This document shows, one piece after another, positions 46,807 through 63,639 of a stretch of DNA of 64,000 nt. Positions within the stretch are counted from its first letter, which is position 1. Each line of letters opens with the position of its first letter. Source of the stretch: Deltaproteobacteria bacterium CG_4_9_14_3_um_filter_63_12 (lineage in GTDB: Bacteria; Myxococcota_A; Bradymonadia; UBA4248; UM-FILTER-63-12); NCBI GenBank assembly GCA_002789955.1, contig PFUG01000420.1, positions 11,569-75,568 on the forward strand, read 5' to 3'. Under the pieces are notes generated by a model. That model was given only the letters and a program-made list of their open reading frames with translations, was not told the origin of the DNA and ran no database searches. Made by a program: the position numbers and the translations under genes.

Positions 46807-46980
46807 AGGCTCGTTCTTAGTCGTGTTGAAACGCACAGAGACAGAGGTCAGGTCGCAAACCTGATGTCCATTTTGACGATCGACATCTCGAGTCGCGGAA
46901 TGTCCTCGTCCTCGCTGGGTGAGCCAAAGAAAACAGGGTGAACTGGAGTCCACCCTGTTCGAGATTCGCAAGCCGTGGGG

Positions 46981-48396
46981 TTATTGGCATCCTGTTGAGA
47001 ACAAGGCGCCATTGACGCATGTCCCCGGGGACTGTTTGCGGGGATCCGCCACGACGTCAGTGATCAGAGAGGTGAACGGCACAAACGCCGTCCCAGTGAG
47101 GTCGGGGCTTCGCTGCAAAGATTGGTCTGAGGCGTCCGCATTCGAAGCCCACGTCGCGGTCCCGAGGGTGAAGGCCACCCCCTGTGCGTCGAAGATCGCG
47201 ACGGTGCTGCCGCCGTTGACGAGCCCGAGGGAGTCGACGACCACCAGCGCGTCGGCGAACTCAGGGCAACTCGGTGTTCCGCCACCAAAGAAAACCAAGG
47301 CTTGTTTCGGCCCAAGACACTGATCGGTGGTGAACGTGTACTTGCTTGCCCCCGCGACACCCAGCCGCACGCCTTTGAGGTTGACGTCCGACATCCCGAC
47401 GTTGACGACCTCGACGAATTCGTCCTTGGTCGACTCTTGCACGCCGTCGCAGTTGGCGTCGCCTCCGGCCTGTCCAGGTGTGGTGTTGCTGGCCATCGGA
47501 TCGAAAAGGACTTCATTGAGCACGAGGTCGTCGAGGGAGGGCGGATCGCAGGGTGGAGGGACGTCCACAGGCACATCGGTCACATCGGTCGCATCGGCGA
47601 CATCTGAGCTTACGTCGTCCCCGTCCACCGGGCTTGCGGGCATGCAGCCCTTGATGAGCTCCTCGCCGTTGATGCATTTGCCGGGGGAGGACCGAGTGGT
47701 TGAGACCTCGACGTGTTTCAGAAAGTCCCCAGTAAAGTCTGGGGCTCGCGTCCATGAGCTGTTTCCACTGCTCAAGGAAGGGACATTGACCACATCGAGC
47801 TGCGTGCCTGACAGGACCAAGCTGACCTGCGTACCGCTGTTGCTCAGAGAGAGTGACTTGGAGGAGACCAACGCTTGAGTGCCACCAAGGACGGTGCAGG
47901 CTGCTGTCCCACCAGAGTACAAAACCAACCCACGGGAAGGCTCCAAACACCCACTCAGCGTGTGCTTGGTCGTCCCATTGACCTGAACCTCGATTCCATC
48001 CAGGGACAAGACTCCGCTCGAGTTGTTGACGATCTCGATGAATTCATCCTGGAGATTGCTGGCGAGCCCATCGCAATTGGAATCGTCTGCGCCATTGAGC
48101 GGCGACGTGTGCACCTCATTGATGCGCAGTTCAGACTCCGTCACAGGCGGGACGCCCTGACAGTTCATGGCATCGACTCCATCAGGCAAATCGCCTGCTG
48201 CAGTGCCGTCAAATGCGGGGCGTTCTTCGCACTTGTTGAACACGCAGCGCATATTTATCGGACACTCCTCGTCCTCCGTGCACTGTCGTTGCGTGTCATC
48301 GCAACTCGTGAGCAACGTCGGCGTTGCGAGGAGGGCGAGAAGGAGCGAAAGGACGAGGGGGGATACCCTGTGCGCTTTGGTTTTGCCGTACTCTGT
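46981..48396 (-). CDS. Lipoprotein with two lamin-tail (LTD) domains (tandem paralog)
   Basis: ATG at 48396 with GAGGAG 6 nt upstream. MTEYGKTKAHRVSPLVLSLLLALLATPTLLTSC (lipobox). LRINEVHTSP...DEFIEIVN and LVLNEVLFDP...DEFVEVVN. Confidence 0.5.
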   Translation of the reverse strand, partial: TEYGKTKAHRVSPLVLSLLLALLATPTLLTSCDDTQRQCTEDEECPINMRCVFNKCEERPAFDGTAAGDLPDGVDAMNCQGVPPVTESELRINEVHTSPLNGADDSNCDGLASNLQDEFIEIVNNSSGVLSLDGIEVQVNGTTKHTLSGCLEPSRGLVLYSGGTAACTVLGGTQALVSSKSLSLSNSGTQVSLVLSGTQLDVVNVPSLSSGNSSWTRAPDFTGDFLKHVEVSTTRSSPGKCINGEELIKGCMPASPVDGDDVSSDVADATDVTDVPVDVPPPCDPPSLDDLVLNEVLFDPMASNTTPGQAGGDANCDGVQESTKDEFVEVVNVGMSDVNLKGVRLGVAGASKYTFTTDQCLGPKQALVFFGGGTPSCPEFADALVVVDSLGLVNGGSTVAIFDAQGVAFTLGTATWASNADASDQSLQRSPDLTGTAFVPFTSLITDVVADPRKQSPGTCVNGALFSTGCQ

Positions 48397-48606
48397 CATT
48401 TGGGTCTCCTCGAGCCCTGATTGCTTATGTCTTTCGCGAAACAAGTGTCGGCTTTGGTCGCGCCAACTTGCTCATCGGGTCACGAACAAAGGAGGTCTCA
48501 ATCCTCATGTTCGAGCCCAAACTGCGGGGCAGTGTAGCGGTGGGCACAACCCGGATCAATCTCCCCCTGAGAGGGAGCCGAGAACACCCCGAGGCCCCAA
48601 CTCCCT

Positions 48607-49842
48607 TCAAGAGGCCTTCTTGGTGTAGATAACTTCGGGCTTCTCCTCGCCACGCACGGCGCCACGGCTGATCACGACCTCACGGACGTTATCCAGTGAA
48701 GGCAGCTCGTACATGATGTCGAGCATCACTTCTTCAATAATTGCCCGGAGTCCCCGCGCGCCACTCTTACGCTCAATGGCCTTTTGCACGATCGCGAGCA
48801 TTGCGCCCTCGGTGATCGTGAGCTTCACGTTCTCGAGGTCGAAGAGCTTCTTGTACTGCTTCACGAGGCTGTTCTTGGGTTGCCAGAGAATCTGTACCAG
48901 AGCCGTCTCGTCGAGCTCGTCAAGAGCGACGACGACGGGCAGACGCCCGACGAACTCAGGGATGAGACCATATTTCGTCAGATCTTCGGTCTCTACCTGG
49001 TGAGTCAACGTGTTGAGTTTCTCGGGCTTCTTGGAGACGTCGGCGTTGAAGCCAATAGCGCTCTCGCCGAGTCGCCGTTGGATGATCTCCGTCAGTCCTG
49101 AAAATGAACCGCAGCAGATGAAGAGGATGTTCGTAGTGTCGACCTGGATGAACTCCTGTTGGGGGCGATTCCGGCTCCCTTCAGGGGGGATCATCACTTT
49201 TTCGGACTCGATCATCTTGAGCAGCGCCTGTTGGACTCCCTCGCCACCAACATCACGAGTCGAACTGGTGGCGTTGCCTTTTCGCGCGAGCTTGTCGATC
49301 TCATCGATGCACACGATGCCGCGAGCAGCCTTGTTTACATCCCGGCCGGCAGCAATCCACAGGTTTTTGATGACGTTCTCGACATCCTCCCCTACGTATC
49401 CAGCCTCCGTCAGGCTGGTCGCGTCAGCCATGGTAAAGGGGACGTCAAGGAGCTTTGCCAGGGTCTGAGCGAGCAGGGTCTTGCCGCTCCCGGTTGGGCC
49501 GATCATGAGGATGTTCCCCTTGCTCAGCTCGACTTCGTCCTCGGTCTCGTCTTGGCAATTGATGCGCTTGTAATGGTTGTAGACCGCAACGGAGATGACC
49601 TTCTTGGCTCGTTCTTGCCCGACGACGTGTTGGTCGAGATGGGCTTTGATGGTCTTGGGCCGCATCTCTCGCGCGGACAACTCGCTGGTGCCATCCCGCT
49701 GAAGATCCTCGGCAATGATCTCGTTGCAGAGCGTGACGCACTCATCGCAAATGTGGACCTTCGGTCCCGCAATGAGCTTTCTGACGTCTGAAGAGTCCTT
49801 ACCGCAGAACGAGCAGCGGACCTTTTCGGTTGGCCTCGGCAT
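48607..49842 (-). CDS. clpX: ATP-dependent Clp protease ATP-binding subunit ClpX
   Basis: N-terminal C4 zinc-binding domain CSFCGK...CDEC. Walker A GPTGSGKT. Full-length collinearity with ClpX, including the pore loop GYVGEDVE and the IGF-loop region. Confidence 0.9.
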
Positions 49843-50081: not shown

Positions 50082-52889
50082 CTATGGGGTCACGACGCTC
50101 GTCAGAACCTGCCCAAAAGGCGCAACGAGCAGCGCCCGCCCACTGTCGATCGACAGCCCTCCGACGAGGTTCCCACGCAAGTCAATGAGGGTCTCCCCGA
50201 CCGTCGTCCCGAGATCGGGGCTGAAGACGATGATGCCATTCGGAGCGGCTGCGATCACATTCTGGCCATCGACCTGCACCATTGTCAGATTCGCGGTGGA
50301 GCCCGTCTCGATCTTGGTCCACGTCGTCCCGCCGTCTTCGCTCTTGTACATGGCTCCAGCGTCCCCAACAGCGATGCCAACGCTCCCATCCCAGTCCCAA
50401 GCCTTGAGGCTCGCGATCGGGGTTTCGAGGGTACCATTGAACACGGGTGTATCGGGCGTCAGTCCATCGGTCCAGGTCGCGCCGTCGTCCGTGGACTGGT
50501 AGATCAAACTGCCAGCCCCGGCGCCATCCGTTAGGATGAGCACGTTCGTCCCGTCGTATTCGAGTTCGCGAATGCTGTGATTGGTCCCAAGAGGCAGCAG
50601 AACGGTTGCCCAGGTCCCCCCACTTTTCCACGAGCCTGTGGTGTCGGCATCCCCCCTGACGACCTCGCCATTGTTCGTCCCCATCATCGCCTCTACACCG
50701 GCCAGGACTACTGTGGTGCCCTCTCCAGTCTTGCCGGTGATGTTACACATGGAGCCAGAAGCGCAGTTGATCGGCACGCTGTACATGGTGCCATCGGTGC
50801 CAATGGTCAAGACAATGACCGACACCGAGATCGCGTTCGAACCGACCACCAACGCGGTGGGCTCGACGCCGGCCTCGAACGCCGTGTCGTTGTAGGTGTC
50901 CAGAAGACCAATGTTGCCAGGCTGCCAGGAGAGGCCGGCGTCCGAGGTCCGCAAAATCTCTTCGGTCTCACCAGCTATGATCCCCACGTCGCCCGAGAGT
51001 GCGGGACGGTGCAGCTTCACATTGCGCGTGGTGGCTGTGGTGTCGGCGAGATTCCAAGTAACTCCGTCGTCCGCAGACCGCAGCAGAAACTCTTCCGGCC
51101 CGCCCCCGCTCAGGAGCAAGTCCCCTTGCTCGTAGAGCCAAGTCAGCTCATTGCGAGCATAGGTCAAACCCCTCTTTGTGTAGGTCTGCGGGGTCCCATC
51201 GACGGTCTGCATGACGCGCCCAAATCCAGCATTGCTCCCATAGAGCAATGCTTCGCTGCCGATCAAATGCACTCCCACCAGCGAGTCGCCTTCGATGATG
51301 CTCACGGGATCAGCGGCAGTCCCAACGCTTCGTCGGAAGACGAATTGAGAACCGGAAAGCAGGACGATCGAGTCGCCGCTCACTGAGATGCTGGTCCAGT
51401 CCAGAGCCGGAACGTCTGCGACGGGTGTCCAAGAGAGCCCCTCGTTCTCCGTGTAGGCCAAAAACCCTGTACCTCCGGCGTAAATTCGGGCGCCATCGGC
51501 AACGAGGAAGCGGACCGTGCCGTTCGCTGGCTTGGTGGGCGTGGTGATCAAGTCGCCCGCGTTGTCGGATCGCAAGATGTTTCCACTCCCAGAGTCCGGA
51601 CCCGCCATGAGGATGAACTGCCCTTCGACCAACACGGTCTCGAGAAGTGCGCCGTTGACCGACGACGAGAGGTCAGTCCAGATCGCTCCAGCGTCGGTGC
51701 TGCGGAGGAACACACCGTGTCCAACCATGACGAAGAGGTCCCCGTCCCCAGCGGCCGCAAGCGGCGTCCCCACACCCAGCGGGAGAAGGACGAGCTGCCA
51801 AGTCAAACCTTTGTCGGTGGAGCGAACGACGCTGCCCGTCTCATCGATGGCGACCACCACATTGCTGCCGTTGTTGCTGACGTGAATGACCTTGCCCGTG
51901 AGCGGCGTGGGAATGGGGTACCAAGTGCTGCCGTCATCCTCACTCCGATACACGAGACCGCCGCTGGAACCGAGGTAGCCGATCCCGTTGGCGGCGAAGT
52001 TGGCGGTCGTGAAGGGGTAATAAGAATCCGTCCAACACTCACCGAGGGCACAGACCTTCTCGCAGCCATCCGCCCACTGCCCATTGGCGTCACGCCGACC
52101 TGGCTGACAAGCGACGATGGCACAGTAGCTCCCACCGCAATGCGACACCTCCACACCGGCGAGAGCTGTGCAGTCGATGCCGCATGTCGCGCCACAGATG
52201 CCATCGTCGTAGGGCTGCTCACAGCCGTCCGCAGGGTCCCCGTCACAATCCAACCAGCCCCAGTCACACACACTTATGGCACAGGTTTGACCCGTACATT
52301 GGGCCGATGAGACGTTGGAGAGACTGGTGCAGTCCAAGCACGCCCCCGCTACTCCACAGACTGTGGGTCCGGACGCCGCTTCGCAGCCGTTCTGCAAGTT
52401 CCCATCGCAGTCGATGCGCCCTGAGTTGCAATCCAGCACGCAAGCGCTCGCTGAACAGGCGCCTCCAAGCGAATTCGGTCGGTCCAAACAGCTCGTGCAC
52501 TCTGGACCGCAAGCATCGTCGGACTCTGGGTTCTCGCAACCGTCGGAGATCTCGCCGTTGCAGTTCGCGAATCCGTCGGAACATGCGCTGATTCCACACC
52601 CCCCCGCCACACAGGTGGCGTCGCCCACATGGCTCAGCGCGGTGCAGTCGGTGCAGGCCGCACCGCACGCCGCGGGATCGGAGTCCCCGCATTGGCTGGT
52701 CTCGGTTTCCTGAACATCCTCGGGTGTGTCCACTGTGACGTCTTCCACGACATCGGGGAGGCCAGTGCTCTGATCGAGACCCTCGATGGCCGCCGGGTCC
52801 TCCCCCAAGATGCAGCCCGAAAGCAGCGCCGAAGCAAACAGCAAAGCCGCGAGAGCTCGCGTGATTGAACGAATATCTCTGCTCCCCAT
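50082..52889 (-). CDS. Large surface lipoprotein with N-terminal cysteine-rich repeats and a multi-blade BNR/Asp-box beta-propeller region
   Basis: Signal + lipobox LLFASALLSGC. Four or five about 40-aa Cys-rich repeats (CG.SDPAACGAACTDCTAL...; ACVLDCNSGRIDCDGNLQNGCE...) resembling the Myxococcus cysteine-rich repeat. At least seven S-x-D-x-G-x-T-W motifs follow (YRSEDDGSTWYPI, VRSTDKGLTWQLV, LRSTDAGAIWTDL, YTENEGLSWTPV, LRSADDGVTWNL, YQSTDDGATWTDG, YKSEDGGTTWTKI). Confidence 0.55.
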   Translation of the reverse strand: MGSRDIRSITRALAALLFASALLSGCILGEDPAAIEGLDQSTGLPDVVEDVTVDTPEDVQETETSQCGDSDPAACGAACTDCTALSHVGDATCVAGGCGISACSDGFANCNGEISDGCENPESDDACGPECTSCLDRPNSLGGACSASACVLDCNSGRIDCDGNLQNGCEAASGPTVCGVAGACLDCTSLSNVSSAQCTGQTCAISVCDWGWLDCDGDPADGCEQPYDDGICGATCGIDCTALAGVEVSHCGGSYCAIVACQPGRRDANGQWADGCEKVCALGECWTDSYYPFTTANFAANGIGYLGSSGGLVYRSEDDGSTWYPIPTPLTGKVIHVSNNGSNVVVAIDETGSVVRSTDKGLTWQLVLLPLGVGTPLAAAGDGDLFVMVGHGVFLRSTDAGAIWTDLSSSVNGALLETVLVEGQFILMAGPDSGSGNILRSDNAGDLITTPTKPANGTVRFLVADGARIYAGGTGFLAYTENEGLSWTPVADVPALDWTSISVSGDSIVLLSGSQFVFRRSVGTAADPVSIIEGDSLVGVHLIGSEALLYGSNAGFGRVMQTVDGTPQTYTKRGLTYARNELTWLYEQGDLLLSGGGPEEFLLRSADDGVTWNLADTTATTRNVKLHRPALSGDVGIIAGETEEILRTSDAGLSWQPGNIGLLDTYNDTAFEAGVEPTALVVGSNAISVSVIVLTIGTDGTMYSVPINCASGSMCNITGKTGEGTTVVLAGVEAMMGTNNGEVVRGDADTTGSWKSGGTWATVLLPLGTNHSIRELEYDGTNVLILTDGAGAGSLIYQSTDDGATWTDGLTPDTPVFNGTLETPIASLKAWDWDGSVGIAVGDAGAMYKSEDGGTTWTKIETGSTANLTMVQVDGQNVIAAAPNGIIVFSPDLGTTVGETLIDLRGNLVGGLSIDSGRALLVAPFGQVLTSVVTP

Positions 52890-53055: not shown

Positions 53056-53811
53056 CTAGATCGGGTTCGAAACCTCGAAAAAGCGCACCTCGAGACCGTA
53101 CTCTGCTGCGATGTGTTCGCCCAGCGCTCGCACACCGAAGACCTCGGTCCGATGATGACCGGCAGCCACGAAGTGCACCCCGAGTTCTTGGGAGACGGCC
53201 ATCGAATCCTCTTGTGCCTCCCCCGTTAGGTAGAGATCCAGCCGCGCCTTGTGGGCTTCCTCCACCATTCGCGCGGCACCTCCGCTGACGATCCCGACCG
53301 TCTCGACCAGCTTCGGGCCGTGGAGAAAAGCGGCCGTGAGCCCACCGCATAGGGTGAGAATCATCGAGCGCACCTCCTCGGCGGGCAGAGCCCTCGGCAT
53401 TCTGCCCCAACAGCCCACAGGTACGCCGTTGACTGGGGCAAAGGGTTGCACGTCCTGCAGCTCCATCGCCCTGGCCAAACACGCGTTGTTGCCGACCTTT
53501 GGGTGTGCATCCAAGGGTAGGTGATAGGCCGCGACGTTCAACTCCGCCGCCAGAATCGACGCCATCCGTGCACGCCGATAGCCGAGTAGGCTCTGAGGAG
53601 ATTGCGTCCAGAAAAAGCCGTGATGGACCAACAGAAGGTCCGCCTCCCACTCGATGGCGCGCTCGATGACATCTTGGGTGATGCTGACCGCCGCAGCGAC
53701 ACGCTCAACGCTCTGCTTCCCTTCGATCTGCAAGCCGTTGACGCAGTAGTCCTTGAACGTGTCTACGGCGAGGGTGTCGTTCAGAGCCTCTATGAGAATG
53801 TCTCGACGCAT
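53056..53811 (-). CDS. Nif3-family dinuclear-metal-centre protein (YqfO/YbgI-like)
   Basis: 251 aa. NGLQIEG...LLLVHHGFFW...YHLPLDAH...GGAA and C-terminal VAAGHH are the conserved Nif3 metal-ligand blocks. Confidence 0.7.
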   Translation of the reverse strand: MRRDILIEALNDTLAVDTFKDYCVNGLQIEGKQSVERVAAAVSITQDVIERAIEWEADLLLVHHGFFWTQSPQSLLGYRRARMASILAAELNVAAYHLPLDAHPKVGNNACLARAMELQDVQPFAPVNGVPVGCWGRMPRALPAEEVRSMILTLCGGLTAAFLHGPKLVETVGIVSGGAARMVEEAHKARLDLYLTGEAQEDSMAVSQELGVHFVAAGHHRTEVFGVRALGEHIAAEYGLEVRFFEVSNPI

Positions 53812-53822
53812 CGATGTCCTTG

Positions 53823-55037
53823 TCAGCGCGATACTCGACCGCTGAGCTCACGTACACGTCGTGCAGCGCTCTCGAGGAAGACCCAGAGCAGTTTGTTCGC
53901 CAGCACGGGATCTTGCTGGGTCAGCTTGTAGAAGTCCCCTTGGTCAATCCGGAGCAGAGTGACATTCTCTCTAGCAAACGCCGAGGCTGAGCGCGGCGAC
54001 TTGTCGACCAAGGCTAGCTCGCCAAAGTGCCCCCCCTCTGGGATGACCGTCAGCTCGACACCCTTGAGTGAGACGGTCACTGCGCCCTCGGCTACGACGT
54101 AGAGGCAGTTGCCGGCTGTCCCTTCGGCGATAATGCAGGCGCCAGCCTGGTGAGACTCTTCGTACACGATGCGCAGAACTCGGGTGAGTTCTTGGTCGTT
54201 GAGGAGCCGGAACAGCTCGATGTTCGAGAACAGCGTCAGTCTTGCGGTGAAATCGATGGAGTGAGTGTCCGACTCGGGGCTCTCGTCTATGGAGATCGCC
54301 ACGGCCGTCGCGTTGTCTGGAGCGCCGCGCTCCTTCGCCAGCTCGACCAACTTGTCGACTAGGTGGGCGGGCCCGTCGTAGTGGCCGATGCTGAGCATCT
54401 CCACGGGCTTGATCAGGTCGCTGACCCCATCCGAGCACAACAGGTAGATGTCGTTGGGGAGCAGATCGACGAACAACGTGTCCGTTTGCACCGTAGGCTC
54501 AGAGCCAATCGAACGGCTGATGATGTGCTTGTAGGGGAACTTGTCGTAGTCCTCGGGCTTTAGTTTGCCTGCGTTCACCAGCCGCTGAAAGAAGCTGTGG
54601 TCTTCTGTCAGCTGGTAGATCTTGTCACGGCGGATCAAATAGATCCGTGAGTCTCCGACGTGACCGATAAACCCGGACGAGTCGAGAAAGGCGAGCATGA
54701 CGCCTGTGGTGGCCATGCCCGTGAGCTCAGGTTCGTGCTGGGTCGTCCCGAAGATCTCGTTGCTGCACTGGTCGAAGATCCGCGCGATCTGTTGCAGGAT
54801 CTGGGTCCGCAGGTCTTTGTCTTTGGCCGATCGATAGTCGGCGAAGGTCTGAGCGAGGCGTGCCCCTTCATGGGAGATGATTCTCGCCGCGGTCGCGCTG
54901 GCGCGATCCCCGCCTGCCTTCCCGCCACAGCCGTCGCAGACCGCAAACACGCCGTTGTCTTGCAGAACGACGAAGGAGTCCTCATTTCGCTCTCGAACAC
55001 ACCCGACGTCTGTTCGATGCCAACTTCGGAAGTGCAT
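53823..55037 (-). CDS. PP2C-family Ser/Thr phosphatase fused to a C-terminal cyclic-nucleotide-binding domain
   Basis: PP2C motifs RERNEDSF, AVCDGCGGKAGGDRAS and LLCSDGVSD. The C-terminal about 120 aa carry GGHFGELALVDKSPRSASAFARENVTLLRI, a CAP-family cNMP-binding beta-roll with the phosphate-binding cassette. Start chosen at the ATG at 55037 to avoid overlap with the upstream cyclase gene. Confidence 0.7.
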   Translation of the reverse strand: MHFRSWHRTDVGCVRERNEDSFVVLQDNGVFAVCDGCGGKAGGDRASATAARIISHEGARLAQTFADYRSAKDKDLRTQILQQIARIFDQCSNEIFGTTQHEPELTGMATTGVMLAFLDSSGFIGHVGDSRIYLIRRDKIYQLTEDHSFFQRLVNAGKLKPEDYDKFPYKHIISRSIGSEPTVQTDTLFVDLLPNDIYLLCSDGVSDLIKPVEMLSIGHYDGPAHLVDKLVELAKERGAPDNATAVAISIDESPESDTHSIDFTARLTLFSNIELFRLLNDQELTRVLRIVYEESHQAGACIIAEGTAGNCLYVVAEGAVTVSLKGVELTVIPEGGHFGELALVDKSPRSASAFARENVTLLRIDQGDFYKLTQQDPVLANKLLWVFLESAARRVRELSGRVSR

Positions 55038-55068
55038 GTCTTCTCCCCAATCGAGTTCGGTGGGCGCC

Positions 55069-56547
55069 TCAGTCTGAATCCGATTCCGTTTGGTGAGCCA
55101 CCAAGGGGTCAACACGACCCGCCCGACCTGCACCCAAAGGACGGAAGATCATGATGGGTCGGCTCACGTTCTTCAACGTTCTACGCCCGACCCGTTCCAA
55201 CTCCAGATGCTCTCGAACCCGCTCCGCTGTTGACTCACTCAGGAGTATATCCCCTTCTTTGGCGAGTCCAGCGACTCGTGCGGCTATGTTAGTCGTTGGC
55301 CCCGTGGCGGTGTACGTATACCGCTCTCCCGTTAGCCCCACGAAGCGATTGAGACCGACGAAGGCTTTGCCACTGTTGATGCCGATATTGACCGACACCG
55401 GCTGCTCGCCTTCCTCCAGCTCGGCGTTGATATTGGCTCCTCCTTCCAGGATCTCCAGCGCTGCTTCGACCGCATCGAGCGCATGCCCCACCGGGGCGTT
55501 CTCTTGGAAAATCACCATGAGCCCGTCGCCGGCGGTCTCGTTGACCTGCCCTCGATGGCGGTGAATCACTTCGAGGAAGCGCGAGAAATAACGTTCGAGG
55601 ATTCTCCCCAGAGACTCCCCTTCGACGATCTCGCTCATTCGCGTATAGCCACCAAGATCCAGGAACATGACGCTGACGTCGCACTCTTTGCGCTGCAGAC
55701 TGCTGGCGTCAGGGTTGCGTTCGAGCTCCCTGCGGACGTTCTCTGGCACGAACTTGGCGAACATGTCGGTCACCTCCATCAACTCCTTCTGGAGGAGGAC
55801 GGTCTGGCTAAACGCCACGGTTCGTCGGCGGTAGAGGTAGAACGTGTAGAGGAGGAGGAATCCCAAAAGGACGCTCACGCCGATCACCGCGAACATGACC
55901 GAGTCCGACTTCTTCAGGAGATCGGCGTAGACCATGTCGATGGCCAAAACGCCCTTAACCTCTCCCTCCGCATCGTAGACCGGCGCGTAACCCGTAACCA
56001 GCACACCCCATGGAGGATCCGGCTCGGGGATCATCCGGGCTGAACTGTGCTCGAGACCAAGGAGCATGACCTCGTGAAACTGGCGCGCATGATAGGGATC
56101 GCCAGGCAGAGTAGCGACCTCGTCGCTGTCCAGCACTCCGTTCCCGTCGCGGTCGAGGCTGAAGGGCTCTGCGTCGACAAGGTACTCCCAGAGGTCTCCA
56201 GGTCCTACGTAGCGCATCGTGTAGACCCAAGTGAAACCCGGGGAGGTCGAGCGGATGCGGGACAACGTCGATTGGATACGGTGAAATTCGGGCTTGCTCA
56301 TGTCGGAGCGGTCGGTGATGGCCTCCAGGTCCTCCCCTCGAACCTGGCTTGCTCCCAGCAACGCAGCGGTCCGCAGCTGCTGATCGGCCTCGCGGATCAG
56401 CACATCGTTGGTCAGGGTGATGATCCAGACGTCGAGAGCACCCAAGACCACCGCGATCACCACACCGGCAAGAACAACAGGCAGCCATCGGCGTGTCGAA
56501 TGCCTCGAGACCGTGGACCTTGCCGTTTCCGCTTCGTTCGGCATCAA
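55069..56547 (-). CDS. Membrane-anchored class III adenylate/guanylate cyclase with a periplasmic sensor domain
   Basis: TM1 (LPVVLAGVVIAVVLGAL), about 170-aa extracytoplasmic segment, TM2 (VMFAVIGVSVLLGFLLLYTFYLY). CHD catalytic domain with VMFLDLGGYT (metal Asp), ETAGDGLMVIF, GINSGKAFVG and TGPTTNIAARV. Confidence 0.75.
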   Translation of the reverse strand: MMPNEAETARSTVSRHSTRRWLPVVLAGVVIAVVLGALDVWIITLTNDVLIREADQQLRTAALLGASQVRGEDLEAITDRSDMSKPEFHRIQSTLSRIRSTSPGFTWVYTMRYVGPGDLWEYLVDAEPFSLDRDGNGVLDSDEVATLPGDPYHARQFHEVMLLGLEHSSARMIPEPDPPWGVLVTGYAPVYDAEGEVKGVLAIDMVYADLLKKSDSVMFAVIGVSVLLGFLLLYTFYLYRRRTVAFSQTVLLQKELMEVTDMFAKFVPENVRRELERNPDASSLQRKECDVSVMFLDLGGYTRMSEIVEGESLGRILERYFSRFLEVIHRHRGQVNETAGDGLMVIFQENAPVGHALDAVEAALEILEGGANINAELEEGEQPVSVNIGINSGKAFVGLNRFVGLTGERYTYTATGPTTNIAARVAGLAKEGDILLSESTAERVREHLELERVGRRTLKNVSRPIMIFRPLGAGRAGRVDPLVAHQTESDSD

Positions 56548-56550
56548 GCG

Positions 56551-57081
56551 TCAGGAGAACTTGAGTTGATCGACCAAACTCTTCAACGACTCGTAGTAGG
56601 TATCTCGCTTGGCGTCTTCGAAGTAGCCAATGACCAAGAACGCTGAGTCGTCTTTGGTGAAACTGAAGACAACGACACGCAGCTTGAGGCCCGTGTGTTC
56701 GAAACTGTACTCGGTCTGCTTGCCGTCAATCGCCCCGATCTTGGTGTCGGTGGCCGCCGAATACTCGACGAAATCCGCGCCGAGAAGTGATTGGTGAAAG
56801 GTGTCGAAAAACACCTGCGTCATGTCGCTGTTGATCAGCTTCGTCCCGATCACCTCGAGCTGGCTGCCGCTCTCGGCGTGCCGGTAGCTCGCGATGGACT
56901 TGTCGTTGCCGGGCAGCTTCACCAGCTCCCACCCTTCAGGCGGGGAGACAGTGACACCCAAGAGGTCGTTGACAACGGGTTGTCCGTCGTTCTGGGCGAT
57001 CAACTGGGTCGAAGTGAAGACCAGTGACAACACGACAGCCAACATCAGCCCACTACGTTTCGTCGCAATTGGCTTCATCAA
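56551..57081 (-). CDS. Small secreted protein, first gene of the cyclase operon
   Basis: Signal peptide MMKPIATKRSGLMLAVVLSLVFTSTQLIAQ. 176 aa with no recognisable domain. Its stop lies 3 nt before the cyclase start. Confidence 0.4.
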   Translation of the reverse strand: MMKPIATKRSGLMLAVVLSLVFTSTQLIAQNDGQPVVNDLLGVTVSPPEGWELVKLPGNDKSIASYRHAESGSQLEVIGTKLINSDMTQVFFDTFHQSLLGADFVEYSAATDTKIGAIDGKQTEYSFEHTGLKLRVVVFSFTKDDSAFLVIGYFEDAKRDTYYESLKSLVDQLKFS

Positions 57082-57251
57082 AGGGCCTCCTCTTCCTGCT
57101 GCATCAAGTGATATCGCTCATCTGCAAAACCTGCGTAGGAACTCCCACTGCTGGATAGCATCGTTGCTCGACCATCGCAAGACACGCCAATCGGCGGCGG
57201 CACTCTTGTACAACATCGAGACCCACCCCCGGCGGCCACCAACCTCCATGA

Positions 57252-58979
57252 TCATCTGGGACCACGTCGCTTCTTCCTCGTATCCCGGGATTGGAATGCC
57301 TCGAGGGCCTCGATGAGTGTGTCGTGCTCAACGGCCATGGGCCGCAGACGCTCGGCGCGGGGCGCGCGATCCGATTCGATGTCAGAGCGGAACTCTACGG
57401 GTTCAGACTCCCTTGTACACCAGCGGTAGATCTTCAGCTCGTCCTCGTCCCAACGGTAGAGTCCATAGGTGAGCGGTGACCGACAGTGGGGATCGTGCCG
57501 CTCACGACGTTCGGGAGATATCCAAGCTCCAGTGTTCACATAGAAGCGCGGCGGATCTCGCTTGAGTTGATGAAACTCTGGGTAGTGTGAGTGCCCCATC
57601 ACCACATAACGAACATCGATCAGGCGGTGGATTTGTTCGGCGGCTTGAAGGAGTTTTGGTGATACTGAAGTCGACAGTCGCCCTTCCGAGAACGACGCCA
57701 CCAGTGCCGTGGTGCCGAACCACGCAAAGATCGTGAGAAAACCTATGGCGAGGAGCATCAGCAGCCGAACACCACTGCTGAAAAGTCCGGACCCAAAGCC
57801 ACTCAAGACATCGGCGAAGACCCCCACCGCGAGGATCCACAGCACTACCGAACCGATCGCCAAACCCAGCAGGTATTTGTCGAGCGCCGTCACTTGAATC
57901 GTTCGCCAAAGAGACTGCTCGATCGGCAATCGCCGGCTTCGACTGACCTCCTGCAGCGCTTTTACGGGAATCTTGTAGTGGACGGCCTCAACTTCGAGGA
58001 GTCGATCGTGCTCGTCCGTCAGCGCCTGCGACGGAGCATTTTGCTGAACGTCCCGCGTATAGTTCCAAACTCGGCTGAACAACGATCCATAGAGGAACAC
58101 GACCTTCGCGACGTTCCGCGCCCCCTGGTCGCGCAGCCAATGCACGTAATCGAGCAGGGTCCAGTTGTCCTTGTCGTGGCTTTGAAAGCCTGTGTATTGA
58201 TTCACGAAGTAACGGATGATGAGGTGCGACAACGGCATCGCGATCTGGCTCTCTCGCTCCACCATCAGCGGCCTCAGACGACGGTCAAAGCTCGAAAAGT
58301 CGTCGTACTGGTTCCCGTGCTCGATGTAGAGCCGACCAGGGATGTGCAAAAACCATTGATGAAAAGTGACTCGATTGACGAAGTCCTCTTCGTTCACGCC
58401 TTCGACGCGCTCGCCGCCGAAGTACGACTCCGTCAACAGCTCGACAAAACGCCCCTGCACCGAGGGCCAGAAGAACTCGACGTCGTGGTTCCCATACAGC
58501 ATTTCGAGGCGATTCCCCTTCGCCACGAAATCTGCGAGGAACGTAAAGAGCCGCTTATGACGCTCCGCGATGTGTTCCAGCTTCCAAACACACTTTGCGG
58601 CACTGTTGTCCAAACCGAATCTGAGCTCGTCGTCGGAGTACTCGAACTCTGGATTGGACGCGATCTCCTTGCGGGAGGGCATGAAGGTCACGGCGAGGAA
58701 ATCGATGAAGTCCCCGTTGATCACGAGCCGCCAGGGCCGATCGGCGACGCGGTGATTGCCGTGGTACTCGAGGAATGCACACAACTCGCGATCCAACGAG
58801 TCCGCCCGTTTGACGTATTCGATCCGGTCGAAGTTCTTGGAGTGCTCACCGACGTGATGGTCACTGCAAATCAGCACAGACCAGGGCTCTGCTGAGCCAG
58901 TCTGCACCTCGCCTGCACTCTGCTTACTCTTCCGAATTTCTCGCAGGGTCTTGACCATCCGTGTCCATCTTCGTCCCAA
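57252..58979 (-). CDS. Calcineurin-like metallophosphoesterase with an inserted transmembrane hairpin
   Basis: Phosphoesterase motifs ICSDHHVG (DxH), INGDFIDF (GDxxD), YGNHD (GNHD/E) and VVMGHSH (GHxH). Two or three hydrophobic helices (LGLAIGSVVLWILAVGVFADVL; LLMLLAIGFLTIFAWFGTTALVA) interrupt the fold before the last His motif. Confidence 0.55.
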   Translation of the reverse strand: MGRRWTRMVKTLREIRKSKQSAGEVQTGSAEPWSVLICSDHHVGEHSKNFDRIEYVKRADSLDRELCAFLEYHGNHRVADRPWRLVINGDFIDFLAVTFMPSRKEIASNPEFEYSDDELRFGLDNSAAKCVWKLEHIAERHKRLFTFLADFVAKGNRLEMLYGNHDVEFFWPSVQGRFVELLTESYFGGERVEGVNEEDFVNRVTFHQWFLHIPGRLYIEHGNQYDDFSSFDRRLRPLMVERESQIAMPLSHLIIRYFVNQYTGFQSHDKDNWTLLDYVHWLRDQGARNVAKVVFLYGSLFSRVWNYTRDVQQNAPSQALTDEHDRLLEVEAVHYKIPVKALQEVSRSRRLPIEQSLWRTIQVTALDKYLLGLAIGSVVLWILAVGVFADVLSGFGSGLFSSGVRLLMLLAIGFLTIFAWFGTTALVASFSEGRLSTSVSPKLLQAAEQIHRLIDVRYVVMGHSHYPEFHQLKRDPPRFYVNTGAWISPERRERHDPHCRSPLTYGLYRWDEDELKIYRWCTRESEPVEFRSDIESDRAPRAERLRPMAVEHDTLIEALEAFQSRDTRKKRRGPR

Positions 58980-60936: not shown

Positions 60937-63639
60937 CTACTTCGCGGCGGCCAGGGCGGCGTCGATCTCGGCCTTGAAGGCCTCGAATGGCTGCGCACCA
61001 ACGAACTTCTTGCCGTTGATCAGGAAACTCGGAGTTCCAGAGATCCCAGCGCCTTTGGCCTGAGCGCCGTCGCTCTGGATCGTGGCTTTGAACTTTCCGC
61101 TGTCGAGAGCGGCGCGGAACTTGACCATATCGAGACCCAACTGCCCTGCGTAGGCCTCGAGATTCTCCCGCTTGATGGCTCTTTGGTTGGCGAAGAGGAT
61201 GTCGTGGTATTCCCAGAACTTGCCCTGCTCGTGCGCGGCGAGTGCGGCCTCTGCGGCCAAGGGGGCATCCTCGTGGAATTCAAGAGGCATCTGCTTGAAG
61301 ACGATCTTGACGTCGTTCGGGTAGGACTCGTGGATCTGTTTGAAGGTGGGAAGGACCTTTGAGCAGAAGGGGCATTGGAAGTCACTGAACTCGATGATCG
61401 TCACCTTGGCACTCGCTGGTCCCTTGATCGGCGAGCCTTTGATATCGACTTCGACGGGGGCCGGGGCTTGAGTCTTCTCGCTGGAGATGATCGTCTCGTA
61501 GAGCTTGTCCTTGGCGACGCCCTTCGCGAGGTAGTCTTGGGCAGTCTTGTACTCGCGGTCCAGAGCCGCCTGGAAAGACGCCAGCGGCTGTGCTCCCGAG
61601 AAGCGAGTCCCATTGATGAAGAAGTGAGGGGTTCCCCGAACGCCAACCTTGCCAGCGGCGGCCTTGTCGGCCTCGATCACCTTGTCCAGCTCTGCATTGT
61701 CGAGGTCTGCCTCGAACTTGGCCATGTTGAGCTGCAGTTGCTGCGCATAGGAGACCAAGTTATCGCGTCCGAGCGCCTTCTGATTCTTGAACAACATGTC
61801 GTGGTACTCCCAGAACTTCCCTTGTTTGTTCGCCGCGACAGCTGCCCTCGCGGCCAGTGGGGCGCTCTTGTGGAACTCCAGCGGGAAATGCTTGAAGACG
61901 ATCTTGACCTTGCCAGGATTCTTCTCGAGGAGCTCCTTCAAAGTCTCCGCTCCACGGCTGCAGAAGGGACATTCGAAGTCACTGAACTCAACGATAGTGA
62001 CCGGAGCATTCTTGTCGCCAATGACTGGGCTGTCGCCCACGACCACCAAATGGCGACCATCGTCTTCGGGTGCCTCTGCGGCCTGTGGCGGTGCGGCTTC
62101 CTTCGGCGCGCTCAGGACCAACGCCTTGTAGAGATTTTCGCCAGTCAGGCCTTTGGCCTTCGACAGGGCATCGGCTCGCTTGATCTCCTCATCAATGATC
62201 TTCTTGAAGTTCTCGGTGGGCTGCGCCCCAACGAACTTGCGTCCGTTGATCAAGAAACTCGGCGTTCCGGTGATTCCGAACTTGCGACCATCGGCCAAAT
62301 GGGTCGCGATCGTGGTTTCGTACTTTTTGGAGTCCAAGGCCGCTCTGAACTTGGCCATGTTCAAGCCGAGCTGCTCTGCGTACTTCTCCAAGTCCGCCCG
62401 TTGGATGGCCTTCTGGTTGGCGAAGAGCAGGTCGTGGTACTGCCAGAACTTGCCCTGCTCGTGGGCGGCCAGCGCGGCTTGTGCGGCGAGCGGCGCGTCC
62501 TTGTGGAAGTCTAGGGGGAACATCGCGAAGGCGACGCGGACGTCGTTCGGATAGGCCTTGAGGAGCTCCTCGACGGTCGGATTGACCTTGCCGCAGAAGG
62601 GGCATTGGAAATCACTGAATGCGAGGATCGTAACCTTGCCATTTGGCGCGCCTTTCACGGGCAGCGTCGAGATGTCGGGACCCACTCCACCTGCAGTCTC
62701 CTGCCCTGTGGGCAGCGCTGCGGACGGCTGGGGCTGTTCGTTTCCGCCACCGGCCTCCACAACCTCAGGACGTCCACCGCGATCGGCGGCGACTGCATCT
62801 TCAGCAAGGGACGGCCCCGTCTTGATCCCATCGGCGAGGCTGCGGTTGGCCCACACGGCGTAGCTGTAATAGCCATTGGCGCTCTCGAGGAGGTCGTTGG
62901 ACTTGGAGAGTTCCTCGTCGATGATCTGCTTCACCGAGGGGTAGGAGACGCCCTGCTTGAAGGAAACCTTGCGGCCGTTGACGAAGATCGATGGCGTCGA
63001 ACGCAGACCCAATCCCTCGGCGAGTTGCGTATCGCGCTCGAGCGCGGCCTCGGCTTCCTTGGAGTTCATGTCGGCGAGGAACTTCTTGTCGTCGAGGTTG
63101 AGGTCTTTGGCGTAGCCGACCAACTTGTCACTCTTCAAGAAACTGTTGAAATCGGCCTCGAACCCCTTCGCGTCCTTGCGGTCGGTGGGGAAGGCATCGA
63201 AGACCTTGTCGTGGAATTCCCAAAACTTCCCTTGCTGACCAGCGGCCCAAGCGGCCTGCGCAGCGAGGCGAGCATCCGGATGCGTCGAGAGCGGGAGGTT
63301 CTTCCAGATGATGCGGACGTTGTCCTCACCATATTCACGCATGGCGCTGTTGATGAGCGCATCAGAGGCGGCGCGACAGGCTGTGCACTGGAAATCGCCG
63401 AACTCGACAATTGTGACGGGGGCCTTGTGTGAGCCCTTGGCGGGAGAGCCCTTCACTGGAAGGAGCTCGGAATCCACCGTCACCTTTGCCAACTCGGCGC
63501 TCGAGTCGGGGACGCTCGTGATACTGGGCGGGGAGGCTATGAAGTAGCCGATGAGAAAGGCAACCACGGCGGTCACGACGAAGCCAACTACGGCGACGAT
63601 TGGACTTAACCGTTTCTCCTCTGGACCCTGATGTGCCAT
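60937..63639 (-). CDS. Membrane-anchored protein with four tandem DsbA-like thioredoxin-fold domains
   Basis: N-terminal TM anchor (IVAVVGFVVTAVVAFLIGYFI). Four about 200-aa repeats each contain a CxxC thioredoxin active site in the same context (VEFGDFQCTAC; LAFSDFQCPFC; VEFSDFECPFC; IEFSDFQCPFC). Each is followed by ...HKDAPLAA.AALAA..QGKFWEYHD..F and ...GTPSFLINGKKFVGAQP. Confidence 0.65.
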   Translation of the reverse strand: MAHQGPEEKRLSPIVAVVGFVVTAVVAFLIGYFIASPPSITSVPDSSAELAKVTVDSELLPVKGSPAKGSHKAPVTIVEFGDFQCTACRAASDALINSAMREYGEDNVRIIWKNLPLSTHPDARLAAQAAWAAGQQGKFWEFHDKVFDAFPTDRKDAKGFEADFNSFLKSDKLVGYAKDLNLDDKKFLADMNSKEAEAALERDTQLAEGLGLRSTPSIFVNGRKVSFKQGVSYPSVKQIIDEELSKSNDLLESANGYYSYAVWANRSLADGIKTGPSLAEDAVAADRGGRPEVVEAGGGNEQPQPSAALPTGQETAGGVGPDISTLPVKGAPNGKVTILAFSDFQCPFCGKVNPTVEELLKAYPNDVRVAFAMFPLDFHKDAPLAAQAALAAHEQGKFWQYHDLLFANQKAIQRADLEKYAEQLGLNMAKFRAALDSKKYETTIATHLADGRKFGITGTPSFLINGRKFVGAQPTENFKKIIDEEIKRADALSKAKGLTGENLYKALVLSAPKEAAPPQAAEAPEDDGRHLVVVGDSPVIGDKNAPVTIVEFSDFECPFCSRGAETLKELLEKNPGKVKIVFKHFPLEFHKSAPLAARAAVAANKQGKFWEYHDMLFKNQKALGRDNLVSYAQQLQLNMAKFEADLDNAELDKVIEADKAAAGKVGVRGTPHFFINGTRFSGAQPLASFQAALDREYKTAQDYLAKGVAKDKLYETIISSEKTQAPAPVEVDIKGSPIKGPASAKVTIIEFSDFQCPFCSKVLPTFKQIHESYPNDVKIVFKQMPLEFHEDAPLAAEAALAAHEQGKFWEYHDILFANQRAIKRENLEAYAGQLGLDMVKFRAALDSGKFKATIQSDGAQAKGAGISGTPSFLINGKKFVGAQPFEAFKAEIDAALAAAK

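Follow-up and report, generated by a model that had tools for sequence, protein, structure and literature searches.

Three adjacent minus-strand genes of an uncultured myxobacterium-like genome, here called A, B and C, on balance probably make up a signalling module particular to one uncultured Myxococcota-like lineage, in which a membrane-bound cyclase with an extracytoplasmic sensor would make a cyclic nucleotide that regulates a Ser/Thr phosphatase. Such a chain from sensor to cNMP to phosphatase is plausible from the sequence, and the initial annotation of the locus, which had proposed it in the form of a cAMP operon, is partly supported. Within the window (the whole 64,000-nucleotide stretch of DNA that was analysed), the locus is laid out as follows:

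57082..57251, minus strand: region upstream of gene A, 170 nt, intergenic, presumed promoter region of the unit
56551-57081, minus strand: gene A, 176 aa
55069-56547, minus strand: gene B, 492 aa
53823-55037, minus strand: gene C, 404 aa counted from the ATG
53056-53811, minus strand: NIF3/DUF34 gene, beginning 11 nt past the stop of C

The open reading frames and the gaps between them, 3 nt from the A stop to the TTG of B and 31 nt from the B stop to the ATG of C, read directly as first annotated. The three-gene description nevertheless overlooked the NIF3 gene (Pfam DUF34_NIF3, E 6e-57; TIGR00486, 163.5 bits against a cutoff of 130.55), which lies so close to C that the tightly packed run comprises at least four genes; NIF3 is probably co-transcribed with C, but is given no part in the signalling. 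A longer, GTG-initiated reading frame of C extends to 55133, but this start is unsupported because every orthologue begins at the equivalent of MHFRSW. Shine-Dalgarno sequences were found just upstream of the A start (GGAGG) and ahead of C (GGGGAG), while a scan of the run revealed neither a promoter-like site nor a convincing terminator-like site, and co-transcription of A, B and C is plausible. The sole sizeable gap upstream of the run is the 170-nt region preceding A; a consensus scan gave no sigma-70-like site there, so that the promoter of the unit is placed in this region by presumption. In orthologous loci the gap between A and B reaches 112-203 nt, and A therefore need not share the transcript.

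Gene C encodes, as annotated, a PP2C phosphatase fused to a C-terminal cNMP-binding domain (cNBD), both of which match Pfam (PP2C_2, E 6e-12; PP2C, E 1.6e-8; cNMP_binding over residues 294-376 at E 1.7e-18, with 66.8 bits for a cutoff of 27.5). The relevant features are:

54288..55013, minus strand: PP2C catalytic domain, residues 9-250
53868..54227, minus strand: PKA/PKG-type cNMP-binding domain, residues 271-390
53973-54026, minus strand: phosphate-binding cassette FGELALVDKSPRSASAFA, residues 338-355

The metal-binding motifs of the phosphatase are complete (NED Asp20, DGxGG Asp35/Gly36, SDG Asp203/Gly204 and DN Asp241/Asn242), and the metal-binding residues are invariant or at least 90% conserved in an alignment of 33 sequences. 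The solved relatives nearest to the catalytic domain are tPphA (2j82, E 1.4e-29), PstP (1txo) and Stp1 (2pk0); since C scores 195.9 bits against the NCBIfam Stp1/IreP model, below its cutoff of 230, it is a relative of the Stp1 equivalog and not a member. Hydropathy analysis found no TM segment, and the protein is predicted to be cytoplasmic. Of the 120 best database matches to C, only one lacks the fusion.

The phosphate-binding cassette is intact, with Gly339 and Arg349 invariant and Glu340, Ser350 and Ala351 at least 90% conserved across 33 homologues. It is very unlikely, in our view, that the C-terminal domain binds no cyclic nucleotide and serves instead in dimerisation, autoinhibition or the binding of another ligand, with the phosphatase independent of B. 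CRP/FNR-superfamily domains with other ligands or none are documented (PMC10187061), and one lineage (L086) has a C homologue devoid of the cNBD while retaining B; this loss, however, coincides with copies of a repeated element and thus looks like disruption or misassembly. Moreover, the ribose-contacting Gly-Glu and the phosphate-contacting Arg-Ser-Ala are conserved in 33 homologues spanning 33-75% identity, and the cNMP_binding score exceeds the gathering cutoff more than twofold. In the favoured signalling module, a cyclic nucleotide would bind this cassette and the occupied cNBD would allosterically alter, by activation or inhibition, the fused and catalytically complete PP2C. The sequence of the cNBD does not discriminate between cAMP and cGMP: it scores about equally against PKG I (73 bits), RI-beta (74.6 bits) and RI-alpha (67.8 bits), and the PKG-like Arg on strand beta5 is absent.

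The identity of the messenger depends on gene B, a class III cyclase as originally claimed (Pfam Guanylate_cyc over residues 290-459 at E 3.8e-19, with 69 bits for a cutoff of 21.9). From the N-terminus, the protein consists of TM1, a Cache/PDC sensor, TM2, a cyclase-transducer element and the catalytic domain:

55900..56418, minus strand: extracytoplasmic single Cache/PDC-fold sensor, residues 44-216
56119..56154, minus strand: EF-hand-like DxDxDG loop DRDGNGVLDSDE, residues 132-143, inside the Cache domain
55735..55761, minus strand: cyclase-transducer-element-like motif FAKFVPENV, residues 263-271, between TM2 and the catalytic core
55171..55680, minus strand: catalytic domain, residues 290-459

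When aligned with Cya2 (2w01), CyaB (3r5g) and CyaC (1wc0), B has all six canonical class III positions filled: the metal-binding residues are Asp297 and Asp341, the transition-state residues are Asn420 and Arg424, and the base-specifying positions hold Glu337 and Thr413 as opposed to the Lys and Asp of adenylate cyclases. The motifs NETAGDG and YTATGxxTNxAAR are kept in every clade orthologue of B; Glu likewise replaces the adenine-N1-contacting Lys in all of them and in 118 of the best 120 homologues, and the full Glu/Thr pair recurs in 118 of the best 120 database matches. Among natural proteins of solved structure, the guanylate cyclase Cya2 (2w01, E 1.5e-17) is the nearest relative, and the engineered chimera 6fht alone scores higher; Glu337 aligns with Glu488 of Cya2, a position at which 6fht, an engineered adenylate-cyclase variant, has Lys. 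In Cya2, the single change E488K converts the guanylate cyclase into an adenylate cyclase (PMC5995499). More broadly, the Lys and Asp of adenylate cyclases are replaced in guanylate cyclases by Glu and by one of C/S/T/H/A/G, respectively; the second of these positions is Thr in some adenylate and some guanylate cyclases; and an adenylate cyclase with a K-to-E substitution turns over less ATP and more GTP (PMC4215837). Because of Glu337 and Thr413 at the base-recognition positions, the product of B appears marginally more likely to be cGMP than cAMP. The cAMP label of the initial annotation does not hold up well, given this residue pair and the kinship with Cya2: the messenger may well be cGMP, which is at least as probable as cAMP.

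The same pathway could also run on cAMP, with B an adenylate cyclase despite its Glu/Thr pair and C a cAMP-regulated phosphatase, a reading that we regard as possible but less probable. Class IIIb adenylate cyclases typically have Thr at the second position, which Thr413 fits, and Ryu et al., writing in Proteins in 2015, reportedly judged sequence alone insufficient to separate bacterial adenylate from guanylate cyclases, a predicted bacterial guanylate cyclase being said to have proved an adenylate cyclase. In the PDB, the relatives of B are for the most part annotated as adenylate cyclases, the cNBD of C matches PKA regulatory subunits as well as PKG, and we found no characterised Glu/Thr enzyme of the B subfamily. 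Furthermore, cAMP is much more common in bacteria than other cyclic mononucleotides, as reflected in a review (PMC10187061), and some adenylate cyclases do have Thr (PMC4215837). Weighing against cAMP are the near-universal replacement of Lys by Glu described above, the fact that this same residue decides between the two activities in the nearest solved relative (PMC5995499), and the fall in ATP turnover and rise in GTP turnover that K-to-E causes in an adenylate cyclase (PMC4215837).

Hydropathy analysis of B gave exactly two TM segments (residues 25-43 and 217-235) enclosing an extracytoplasmic segment of 173 aa, in agreement with the two-TM periplasmic sensor of about 170 aa first described ahead of the catalytic domain. 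A HAMP domain was not detected with Pfam, and the FAKFVPENV motif aligns with FGRYLTDQV of the Cya2 chimera 6fht, the -FGRY- motif of the Cya2 transducer element having been described previously (PMC5995499). We propose that B would act as a homodimeric class III cyclase whose activity is set by the single Cache domain, the signal passing through TM2 and the cyclase-transducer element directly to the catalytic core without a HAMP; the core, whose catalytic residues are complete, would then make a cyclic nucleotide, with cGMP slightly favoured over cAMP. Since the Cache domain contains the EF-hand-like acidic loop, a divalent cation, Ca2+ or another, may be its input or cofactor. In the AF2 model, DRDGNGVLDSDE sits in a 25-residue coil stretch (residues about 126-150) between the second and third strands, with no flanking E/F helices. 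B has eight full-length orthologue clusters with 51-56% identity and another two with 42%. In nine of 10 orthologue clusters the pattern D-x-[DN]-x-[DN]-[GDNE]-x-[ILVM]-x-x-x-[ED] falls at one and the same place in the alignment; its stricter form (G at position 6) is absent from a background set of 230 proteins (107,048 aa). With the Pfam models EF-hand_1 and EF-hand_6 the loop reaches E 0.18-0.26, short of the Pfam thresholds, and it is missing from the orthologues P0125 and L093.

We examined the neighbourhood of C in 10 related lineages whose phosphatase is at least 60% identical. B adjoins C in eight of them, once in convergent orientation (L093), and A lies upstream of and adjacent to C in all nine assessable lineages; in the database, contigs with an orthologue of the B sensor domain, matched by their lengths, nearly always carry C as well. 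The genes flanking the B-C pair vary (LGT, NIF3, Dus, a methyltransferase), and NIF3 is directly downstream of C in five of the 10 lineages (the window, L001, L087, L088 and L094), including one, L001, that is among those lacking the cyclase. In the two lineages that lack it (L001-L003 and L095), A and C are adjacent with a cyclase neither between nor beside them, so C can function with no B next to it. Beyond the clade, at about 20 distant PP2C-cNBD loci, no cyclase is adjacent (one lies within 8 kb at a single locus) and no A homologue is found, so that the fusion would generally read the cellular cNMP pool and not the product of a dedicated neighbour. The neighbourhood conservation foreseen for the module thus applies to most close relatives but not to distant fusions: it is narrow, and not a general property of PP2C-cNBD proteins.

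The cyclase-less lineages and distant fusions would suit a looser arrangement, in which C is an orphan reader of a cellular cNMP pool fed by many cyclases, B one of many sensor cyclases that is found next to C by chance in this clade, and A tied to C or to neither. Intergenic gaps in orthologous loci, which range from -1 to about 200 nt, point the same way, as does a second cNBD protein in the window, which extends the cNMP signalling of this genome beyond the A-B-C locus. We consider this arrangement rather improbable: B and C stay adjacent in eight of 10 lineages while every flanking gene changes, their adjacency outlasts the inversion in L093, which is hard to explain without selection for linkage, and the B sensor is nearly restricted to C-bearing contigs.

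The product of gene A has a single N-terminal hydrophobic segment (residues 11-29, by hydropathy) resembling a signal peptide, which spans about residues 1-31; it is not a lipoprotein, as it has no Cys. No family was matched in a Pfam search, and its domain has the PsbP/Mog1/DcrB/LpqN fold. The idea that A serves the cyclase as its ligand-binding partner is made less convincing by its persistence beside C in both lineages without B, where its role cannot depend strictly on the cyclase. In the module that we favour, A would most likely be a periplasmic accessory of the same pathway, a co-sensor or ligand presenter, perhaps in contact with B.

At its output, the module would shift the Ser/Thr phosphorylation of Hanks-type kinase substrates. 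Three further genes of the window had been put forward as partners:

14341-15720: Hanks kinase, a real gene
12185-14344: sigma-54 activator, overlapping the start of the Hanks kinase by 4 nt
23431-24834: TPR protein with two cNMP_binding stretches, a real gene

These genes exist, but they lie 30-40 kb away and their partnership is an unlinked conjecture; at other loci, PP2C-cNBD genes do not regularly have a Hanks kinase next to them.

A cyclase next to a cNBD effector is also the logic of Pycsar-like anti-phage systems, in which infection elicits a cyclic (pyrimidine) nucleotide, and PADLOC models match both proteins (PycC on B, E 3e-13, 47.6 bits; PycTIR and effector models on the cNBD of C, E 1e-12). 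We give this possibility hardly any weight: the matches are limited to the shared cyclase and cNBD domains, for which the generic Pfam models score higher (69 versus 47.6 bits for B; 66.8 versus 46 for the cNBD of C), the effector domain of C is a PP2C and neither TIR nor TM, and B combines two TM helices with a periplasmic sensor. In addition, the neighbours are housekeeping genes (NIF3, LGT, ClpX) with no defence island, and the module is conserved vertically inside one clade.

The locus had been presented as an undescribed system, which is true only in part. The PP2C-cNMP fusion was reported in 2010 for the myxobacterial proteins Mxan4398, sce2855 and sce6950, with the prediction that the phosphatase is regulated by cAMP or cGMP and the statement that the fusion is confined to Myxococcales (Treuner-Lange 2010, PMC2887360). 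That statement is outdated, since the fusion is present as well in MAGs labelled Bdellovibrionales, Schekmanbacteria, Planctomycetaceae and Acidobacteriota; in the literature searched, including that after 2010, we found no characterisation of any member. These three proteins share the two-domain architecture of C, whereas homologues labelled Myxococcaceae, Polyangia and Myxococcales match it at only 33-40% identity, and the distant myxobacterial-type fusions examined lack the adjacent cyclase and A homologue of the C locus. Stp1, PstP and tPphA, the nearest solved relatives of the phosphatase domain (E 1e-29 to 3e-20), have all metal-binding motifs in common with C but no cNBD; in addition, PstP has a membrane anchor and Stp1 a PASTA kinase as its partner. 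Eukaryotic PP2C-cNBD-kinase proteins such as Arabidopsis At2g20050 likewise combine phosphatase and cyclic-nucleotide-binding domains in one polypeptide, but have an additional kinase domain and two cNBDs, and we know of no genomic link between them and a cyclase.

On the cyclase side, Synechocystis Cya2 shares the topology of B (extracellular sensor, TM, cyclase-transducer element, cyclase) and its Glu at the first base-specifying position; its sensor, however, is CHASE2 rather than Cache, its second specificity residue is Gly rather than Thr, and the Tyr that boosts its guanylate cyclase activity corresponds to Ala423 in B (PMC4215837). No cGMP receptor is known for Cya2 (PMC10187061). In Rhodospirillum centenum, cyclase and receptor are encoded together, as here: gcyB, gcyC and cgrA form one operon and cGMP controls a developmental response (PMC10187061), although the receptor is a CRP-type transcription factor acting on transcription, as opposed to protein dephosphorylation by C. 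The closest functional logic is that of Xanthomonas campestris, where the class III guanylate cyclase gene XC_0250 adjoins XC_0249, encoding a cNMP-binding GGDEF enzyme whose fused activity is allosterically raised by the nucleotide (PMC3770947). There, the output is a diguanylate cyclase and not a PP2C, XC_0250 is cytoplasmic, with non-canonical Leu/Ala replacing the catalytic Asn/Arg and no periplasmic sensor, and the pair lacks a third, exported component such as A. The parts of the A-B-C locus are hence familiar, and its proposed wiring is a variant of the known arrangement of a cyclase with an adjacent cNMP-receptor enzyme.

Built from familiar parts, the three-gene module described here is a testable candidate for a pathway in which a cyclic nucleotide (cNMP) would regulate a Ser/Thr phosphatase in bacteria. 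An exported protein with a PsbP/DcrB fold (A), a sensor class III cyclase (B) and a PP2C phosphatase fused to a cyclic-nucleotide-binding domain (cNBD; C) are encoded by closely packed minus-strand genes, followed by a NIF3/DUF34 gene:

56551-57081, minus strand: gene A, open reading frame of 176 aa
55069-56547, minus strand: gene B, open reading frame of 492 aa
53823-55037, minus strand: gene C, open reading frame of 404 aa counted from its ATG
53056-53811, minus strand: NIF3/DUF34 gene, passing the TIGR00486 model

The sequence bears out the three reading frames that the initial annotation had taken for a cAMP signalling operon, with 3 nt between the stop of A and the TTG of B and 31 nt between the stop of B and the ATG of C. 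A further 11 nt separate the stop of C from the NIF3 start, which adds a fourth gene absent from that annotation. The nearest larger gaps measure 170 nt on the upstream side of A and 166 nt beyond NIF3. Shine-Dalgarno-type sequences precede A (GGAGG) and C (GGGGAG); the start of B has none, which, given its position 3 nt past the stop of A, is compatible with translational coupling. A longer GTG start of C at 55133 (65-nt overlap with B) was rejected on the N-termini of its orthologues. A consensus scan placed no promoter-like site within the run and one immediately downstream of the NIF3 stop, together with two weak terminator-like matches in B and C; the total of the latter was not above the shuffled expectation, and nothing in the promoter and terminator scan exceeded it. 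Taken with the short gaps, these results make co-transcription of all four genes plausible.

The NIF3/DUF34 protein resembles the NCBIfam 'type 2 GTP cyclohydrolase I' model but scores below its cutoff, and its gene lies downstream of C in five of the ten related lineages, including the cyclase-less L001. In the window this places what may be a GTP-related enzyme beside a possible guanylate cyclase. On the other side of the run, 170 nt upstream of A, a 575-aa protein (57252-58979, minus strand) has two to three transmembrane (TM) segments near residues 370-421 and a weak calcineurin-like phosphoesterase match (Pfam Metallophos, E 0.0023, below cutoff). A membrane phosphodiesterase would suit a cNMP locus; we rejected this protein for that role, given the sub-cutoff Pfam score and the absence of NCBIfam or PDB relatives and of homologues at the orthologous loci. 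It lies outside the conserved module.

Pfam searches returned the domains that the initial annotation had expected, Guanylate_cyc in B and PP2C_2, PP2C and cNMP_binding in C. The class III cyclase domain of B (PF00211, 69.4 bits, cutoff 21.9, E 3.8e-19) spans residues 290-459, and its metal-binding Asp297 and Asp341 and transition-state Asn420 and Arg424 align with those of Cya2, CyaB and CyaC and are kept in the orthologues. The base-specifying pair is Glu337 (in NETAGDG) and Thr413. This is not the pair of adenylate cyclases (Lys/Asp, or Lys/Thr in class IIIb), as Glu337 replaces the Lys; it has the residues of guanylate cyclases (Glu first, C/S/T/H/A/G second), and B may prefer GTP to ATP. 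Guanylate cyclases carry Glu for Lys and C, S, T, H, A or G for Asp, and an adenylate cyclase with a K-to-E substitution moves toward GTP (PMC4215837). Among natural proteins of solved structure, B is best matched by a guanylate cyclase of Synechocystis, Cya2 (2w01, E 1.5e-17), whose Glu488 aligns to Glu337. The top-scoring PDB entry, 6fht, is an engineered E488K version of Cya2 with adenylate cyclase activity.

The Glu/Thr pair is present in all orthologues of the clade and in 118 of the 120 best database homologues. Nearly all of the best homologues of the segment 55171-55680 (P0131-P0240) have the NETAGDG Glu and a Thr in [YF]TA[ST]G..TN.AAR; the best homologues of B are mostly HAMP-cyclases from soil MAGs, many with PF21563, labelled Rokubacteria, Methylomirabilota or Deltaproteobacteria. 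The Glu/Thr cyclases form a large class III subfamily with a guanylate cyclase-like specificity pair, of which the literature searched yielded no characterised member. Ryu et al. (2015) reportedly regard sequence alone as unreliable for separating bacterial adenylate from guanylate cyclases, and because of this warning we rate cGMP only slightly above cAMP as the likely product of B. The reading in the initial annotation is partly supported: its architecture and likely pathway are right, and it is the word "cAMP" that the Glu337/Thr413 pair renders questionable.

By its fold, the sensor part of B is an extracytoplasmic Cache/PDC domain, in which a long N-terminal helix leads into a PAS-like sheet of five strands. 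It occupies the 173-aa external segment that is bracketed by two TM helices (residues 25-43 and 217-235 by hydropathy). The sequence profile of this family stayed below its cutoff there (dCache_1, E 0.07, 13.1 bits, cutoff 45). In the model, a 25-residue stretch of coil (about residues 126-150) between the second and third strands holds one further feature:

Residues 132-143 of B: EF-hand-like loop, DRDGNGVLDSDE, a perfect match to the 12-residue EF-hand loop pattern

Orthologues keep the canonical pattern tested, D-x-[DNS]-x-[DNS]-G-x-[ILV]-x-x-x-E, at a constant place in the alignment, 8 of 10 clusters having its strict form and 9 of 10 a relaxed one; the strict form was found in none of 230 control proteins. 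Since the modelled loop lies in coil without flanking helices and stays below the Pfam thresholds (EF-hand_1, E 0.18), we call it an EF-hand-like DxDxDG loop, and we infer from it that B may bind Ca2+. The second TM helix is joined to the catalytic core without a HAMP domain; the connection carries a cyclase-transducer-like motif, FAKFVPENV, that aligns with the FGRY element of Cya2.

C belongs to the PP2C/PPM phosphatases (PP2C_2, 45.9 bits, cutoff 24; PP2C, 35 bits, cutoff 20.3) and falls short of the Stp1/IreP equivalog (NCBIfam NF033484, 195.9 bits, cutoff 230). Its metal-binding motifs (ED, DGxGG, DG and DN) are well preserved: in an alignment of 33 sequences with 33-75% identity, Asp20, Asp35, Gly36, Asp203 and Gly204 are invariant and Asp241 and Asn242 at least 90% conserved, so that C is predicted to be catalytically competent. 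The cNBD was defined by a profile match (PF00027, 66.8 bits, cutoff 27.5, E 1.7e-18) combined with a phosphate-binding cassette carrying Gly-Glu and Arg-[ST]-Ala. The cassette, whose absence would have spoken against the initial annotation, is present as FGELALVDKSPRSASAFA. In the same alignment its Gly339 and Arg349 never vary, and Glu340, Ser350 and Ala351 are at least 90% conserved. The domain scores equally against those of PKA and PKG, and its sequence does not tell cAMP from cGMP. Hydropathy indicates no TM segment in C, and no solved structure with both PP2C and cNMP-binding domains was found among its PDB relatives.

In the clade of C, PP2C motif II reads CDGCGG (residues 34-39; 54921-54938), so that the metal-binding Asp-Gly is flanked by two Cys residues. 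The motif occurs in all close relatives (P0002-P0009), most homologues having ADG[VM]GG, and a redox-sensitive active site is conceivable.

Gene A encodes a protein with one signal-peptide-like segment by hydropathy and no Cys, for which Pfam, NCBIfam and PADLOC gave no match. Its fold, an alpha-beta-alpha sandwich, matches solved members of the PsbP/Mog1/DcrB/LpqN group. Proteins of this group are periplasmic or lumenal and have accessory, lipid-binding or immunity roles; the function of A is not deducible from the fold alone. The family is small, with only 101 representatives among 1.84 billion proteins in an exhaustive profile search, and in its two longer members, P0249 and P0308, no partner domain could be recognised that would hint at a function. 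Its distant members sit in unrelated neighbourhoods with the exception of locus L090 (57-2722), where a member with 29% identity adjoins an FHA-domain protein and a stand-alone PP2C lies on the opposite strand. Here, in a single case, the A family is associated with Ser/Thr phospho-signalling genes a second time and independently.

The fusion of PP2C and cNMP_binding domains is widespread: it is found in all but one of the 120 best matches to C, whose sources are Myxococcota and MAGs with the labels Bdellovibrionales, Schekmanbacteria, Planctomycetaceae and Acidobacteriota. Metagenomes and unnamed MAGs are the only sources of relatives at least 60% identical to C; among the cyclase orthologues, one bears the label Myxococcota. 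A metagenome scan with C added a single locus. Among the ten lineages with C at this level of identity, the window included, B adjoins C in eight, collinear in seven and convergent in one (L093). The full A-B-C order is collinear in the window, L004, L085, L086, L087, L088 and L094; A lies directly upstream in 9 of 9 assessable lineages, and in L001-L003 and L095 it adjoins C with no cyclase between or beside them. The genes flanking the module vary by lineage (LGT, NIF3, Dus or a methyltransferase), and this variation, together with an adjacency that has survived one inversion, argues for selection on the linkage of B and C. At the cyclase-less loci of L001 (7402-9221) and L095 (2717-4748), the gene for exported A is directly upstream of that for cytoplasmic C, and the cyclase of these genomes may be encoded elsewhere.

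More distant PP2C-cNBD genes do not share this arrangement. At about 20 such loci in GTDB representative genomes we found no A homologue. Only one of them has a cyclase within 8 kb, encoded on the opposite strand at a distance of 3.6 kb, and only a few have a kinase in that range, Hanks kinases not being consistently adjacent; these loci contradict a general tie of the fusion to cyclases, A homologues or Hanks kinases. The A-B-C module is thus peculiar to one clade, where it elaborates on an orphan effector that occurs widely.

In one lineage, L086, the C homologue loses its cNBD: past RDSRTIDL (about 7310-8100) its sequence gives way to multiple copies of a roughly 100-nt repeat that encodes PSKLPRIGLDARGTREFAQQTKGVSCPDR and can be read through in other frames too. 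The loss is probably a disruption, by a MITE- or REP-like insertion, or an assembly artefact.

From the observed parts and their synteny we infer, step by step, the best-supported pathway. An extracytoplasmic cue (Ca2+ or another ligand being candidates, possibly together with A) would act on the Cache domain of B; the second TM helix and the transducer element would switch the homodimeric cyclase; cGMP, or cAMP, would bind the cNBD of C; and its PP2C activity would change, altering Ser/Thr phosphorylation. The pathway in the initial annotation was essentially this one, and its architecture and likely course are retained, with "cAMP" in doubt. We consider the chain in its most specific form, in which Ca2+ sensed through the Cache loop (possibly with A) drives a Glu/Thr guanylate cyclase whose cGMP directly gates PP2C, improbable. 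If it were true, cGMP would gain a post-translational, eukaryote-like output in bacteria. It would also mean that the large Glu/Thr subfamily (118 of the 120 best homologues) is made up of unrecognised guanylate cyclases. Few examples of bacterial cGMP are, to our knowledge, accepted, and the many cyclases from soil bacteria with this pair may be guanylate cyclases.

A Hanks kinase, a sigma-54 activator and a second cNBD protein had also been put forward as candidate substrates or partners; the genes are real, and nothing connects them to the locus, from which they lie 30-40 kb away. The activator (719 aa, of which the first 340 or so match no Pfam family) has a stop that overlaps the kinase start by 4 nt (12185-15720, plus strand), and the second cNBD protein (23431-24834, minus strand; 467 aa) combines TPR repeats with two cNMP_binding stretches. 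Three further side observations concern the minus strand of the window. A 900-aa protein (60937-63639) is an unusually repetitive thiol-disulfide oxidoreductase in which the DsbA/Thioredoxin_4 domain occurs four times in tandem (E 1e-116, four stretches). A 935-aa protein (50082-52889) begins with a segment that resembles a signal/lipobox (LLSGC), continues for about 250 aa with Cys-rich repeats of the type C..C..DC and then has a BNR/Sortilin-Vps10-type beta-propeller region. Two adjoining lamin-tail (LTD) domain genes (45589-48444; 460 and 487 aa) lie downstream of ClpX (48607-49842).

Cyclic-mononucleotide signalling in bacteria is known almost wholly from CRP-type transcription factors, with direct control of enzymes documented in only a handful of cases. 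The mycobacterial cAMP-acetyltransferase is one of them, and the Xanthomonas cGMP-GGDEF protein is a documented example of direct enzyme control like that proposed for C. In myxobacteria, a cNMP-gated PP2C would give second messengers a direct route into the very large networks of Hanks kinases. The fusion itself was reported in 2010 for Mxan4398, sce2855 and sce6950, with the same regulation predicted (PMC2887360); the remark in the initial annotation that this is not a described system was therefore overstated for the fusion and is fair for the three-gene module. Literature searches on bacterial PP2C-cNBD proteins and MXAN_4398 found no characterisation beyond this phosphatome survey, and no test of the cNMP-PP2C link that it predicted (PMC2887360). 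What that prediction lacked was a partner upstream of the phosphatase; the clade supplies one in the form of a putative dedicated sensor cyclase, and the pathway could now be tested with as few as three purified proteins.

Among known systems, PADLOC pointed to Pycsar, with matches at the domain level only. Pycsar systems lie in a defence context and pair a cytosolic pyrimidine cyclase with an effector of the cNBD-TIR or cNBD-TM type; the PP2C effector, the periplasmic-sensor cyclase and the housekeeping neighbours of our locus rule out this or another defence system. The operon logic of B and C is like that of XC_0250/XC_0249 of Xanthomonas, a cyclase next to a cNBD-fused enzyme, and the adjacency of cyclase and cNBD-effector genes expected of a pair of this type is conserved in 8 of the 10 lineages and not for the distant PP2C-cNBD genes. 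The A-B-C run likewise recalls the cyclase-plus-receptor operon logic of gcyB, gcyC and cgrA in R. centenum, where the receptor cgrA, unlike C, is a CRP-type transcription factor.
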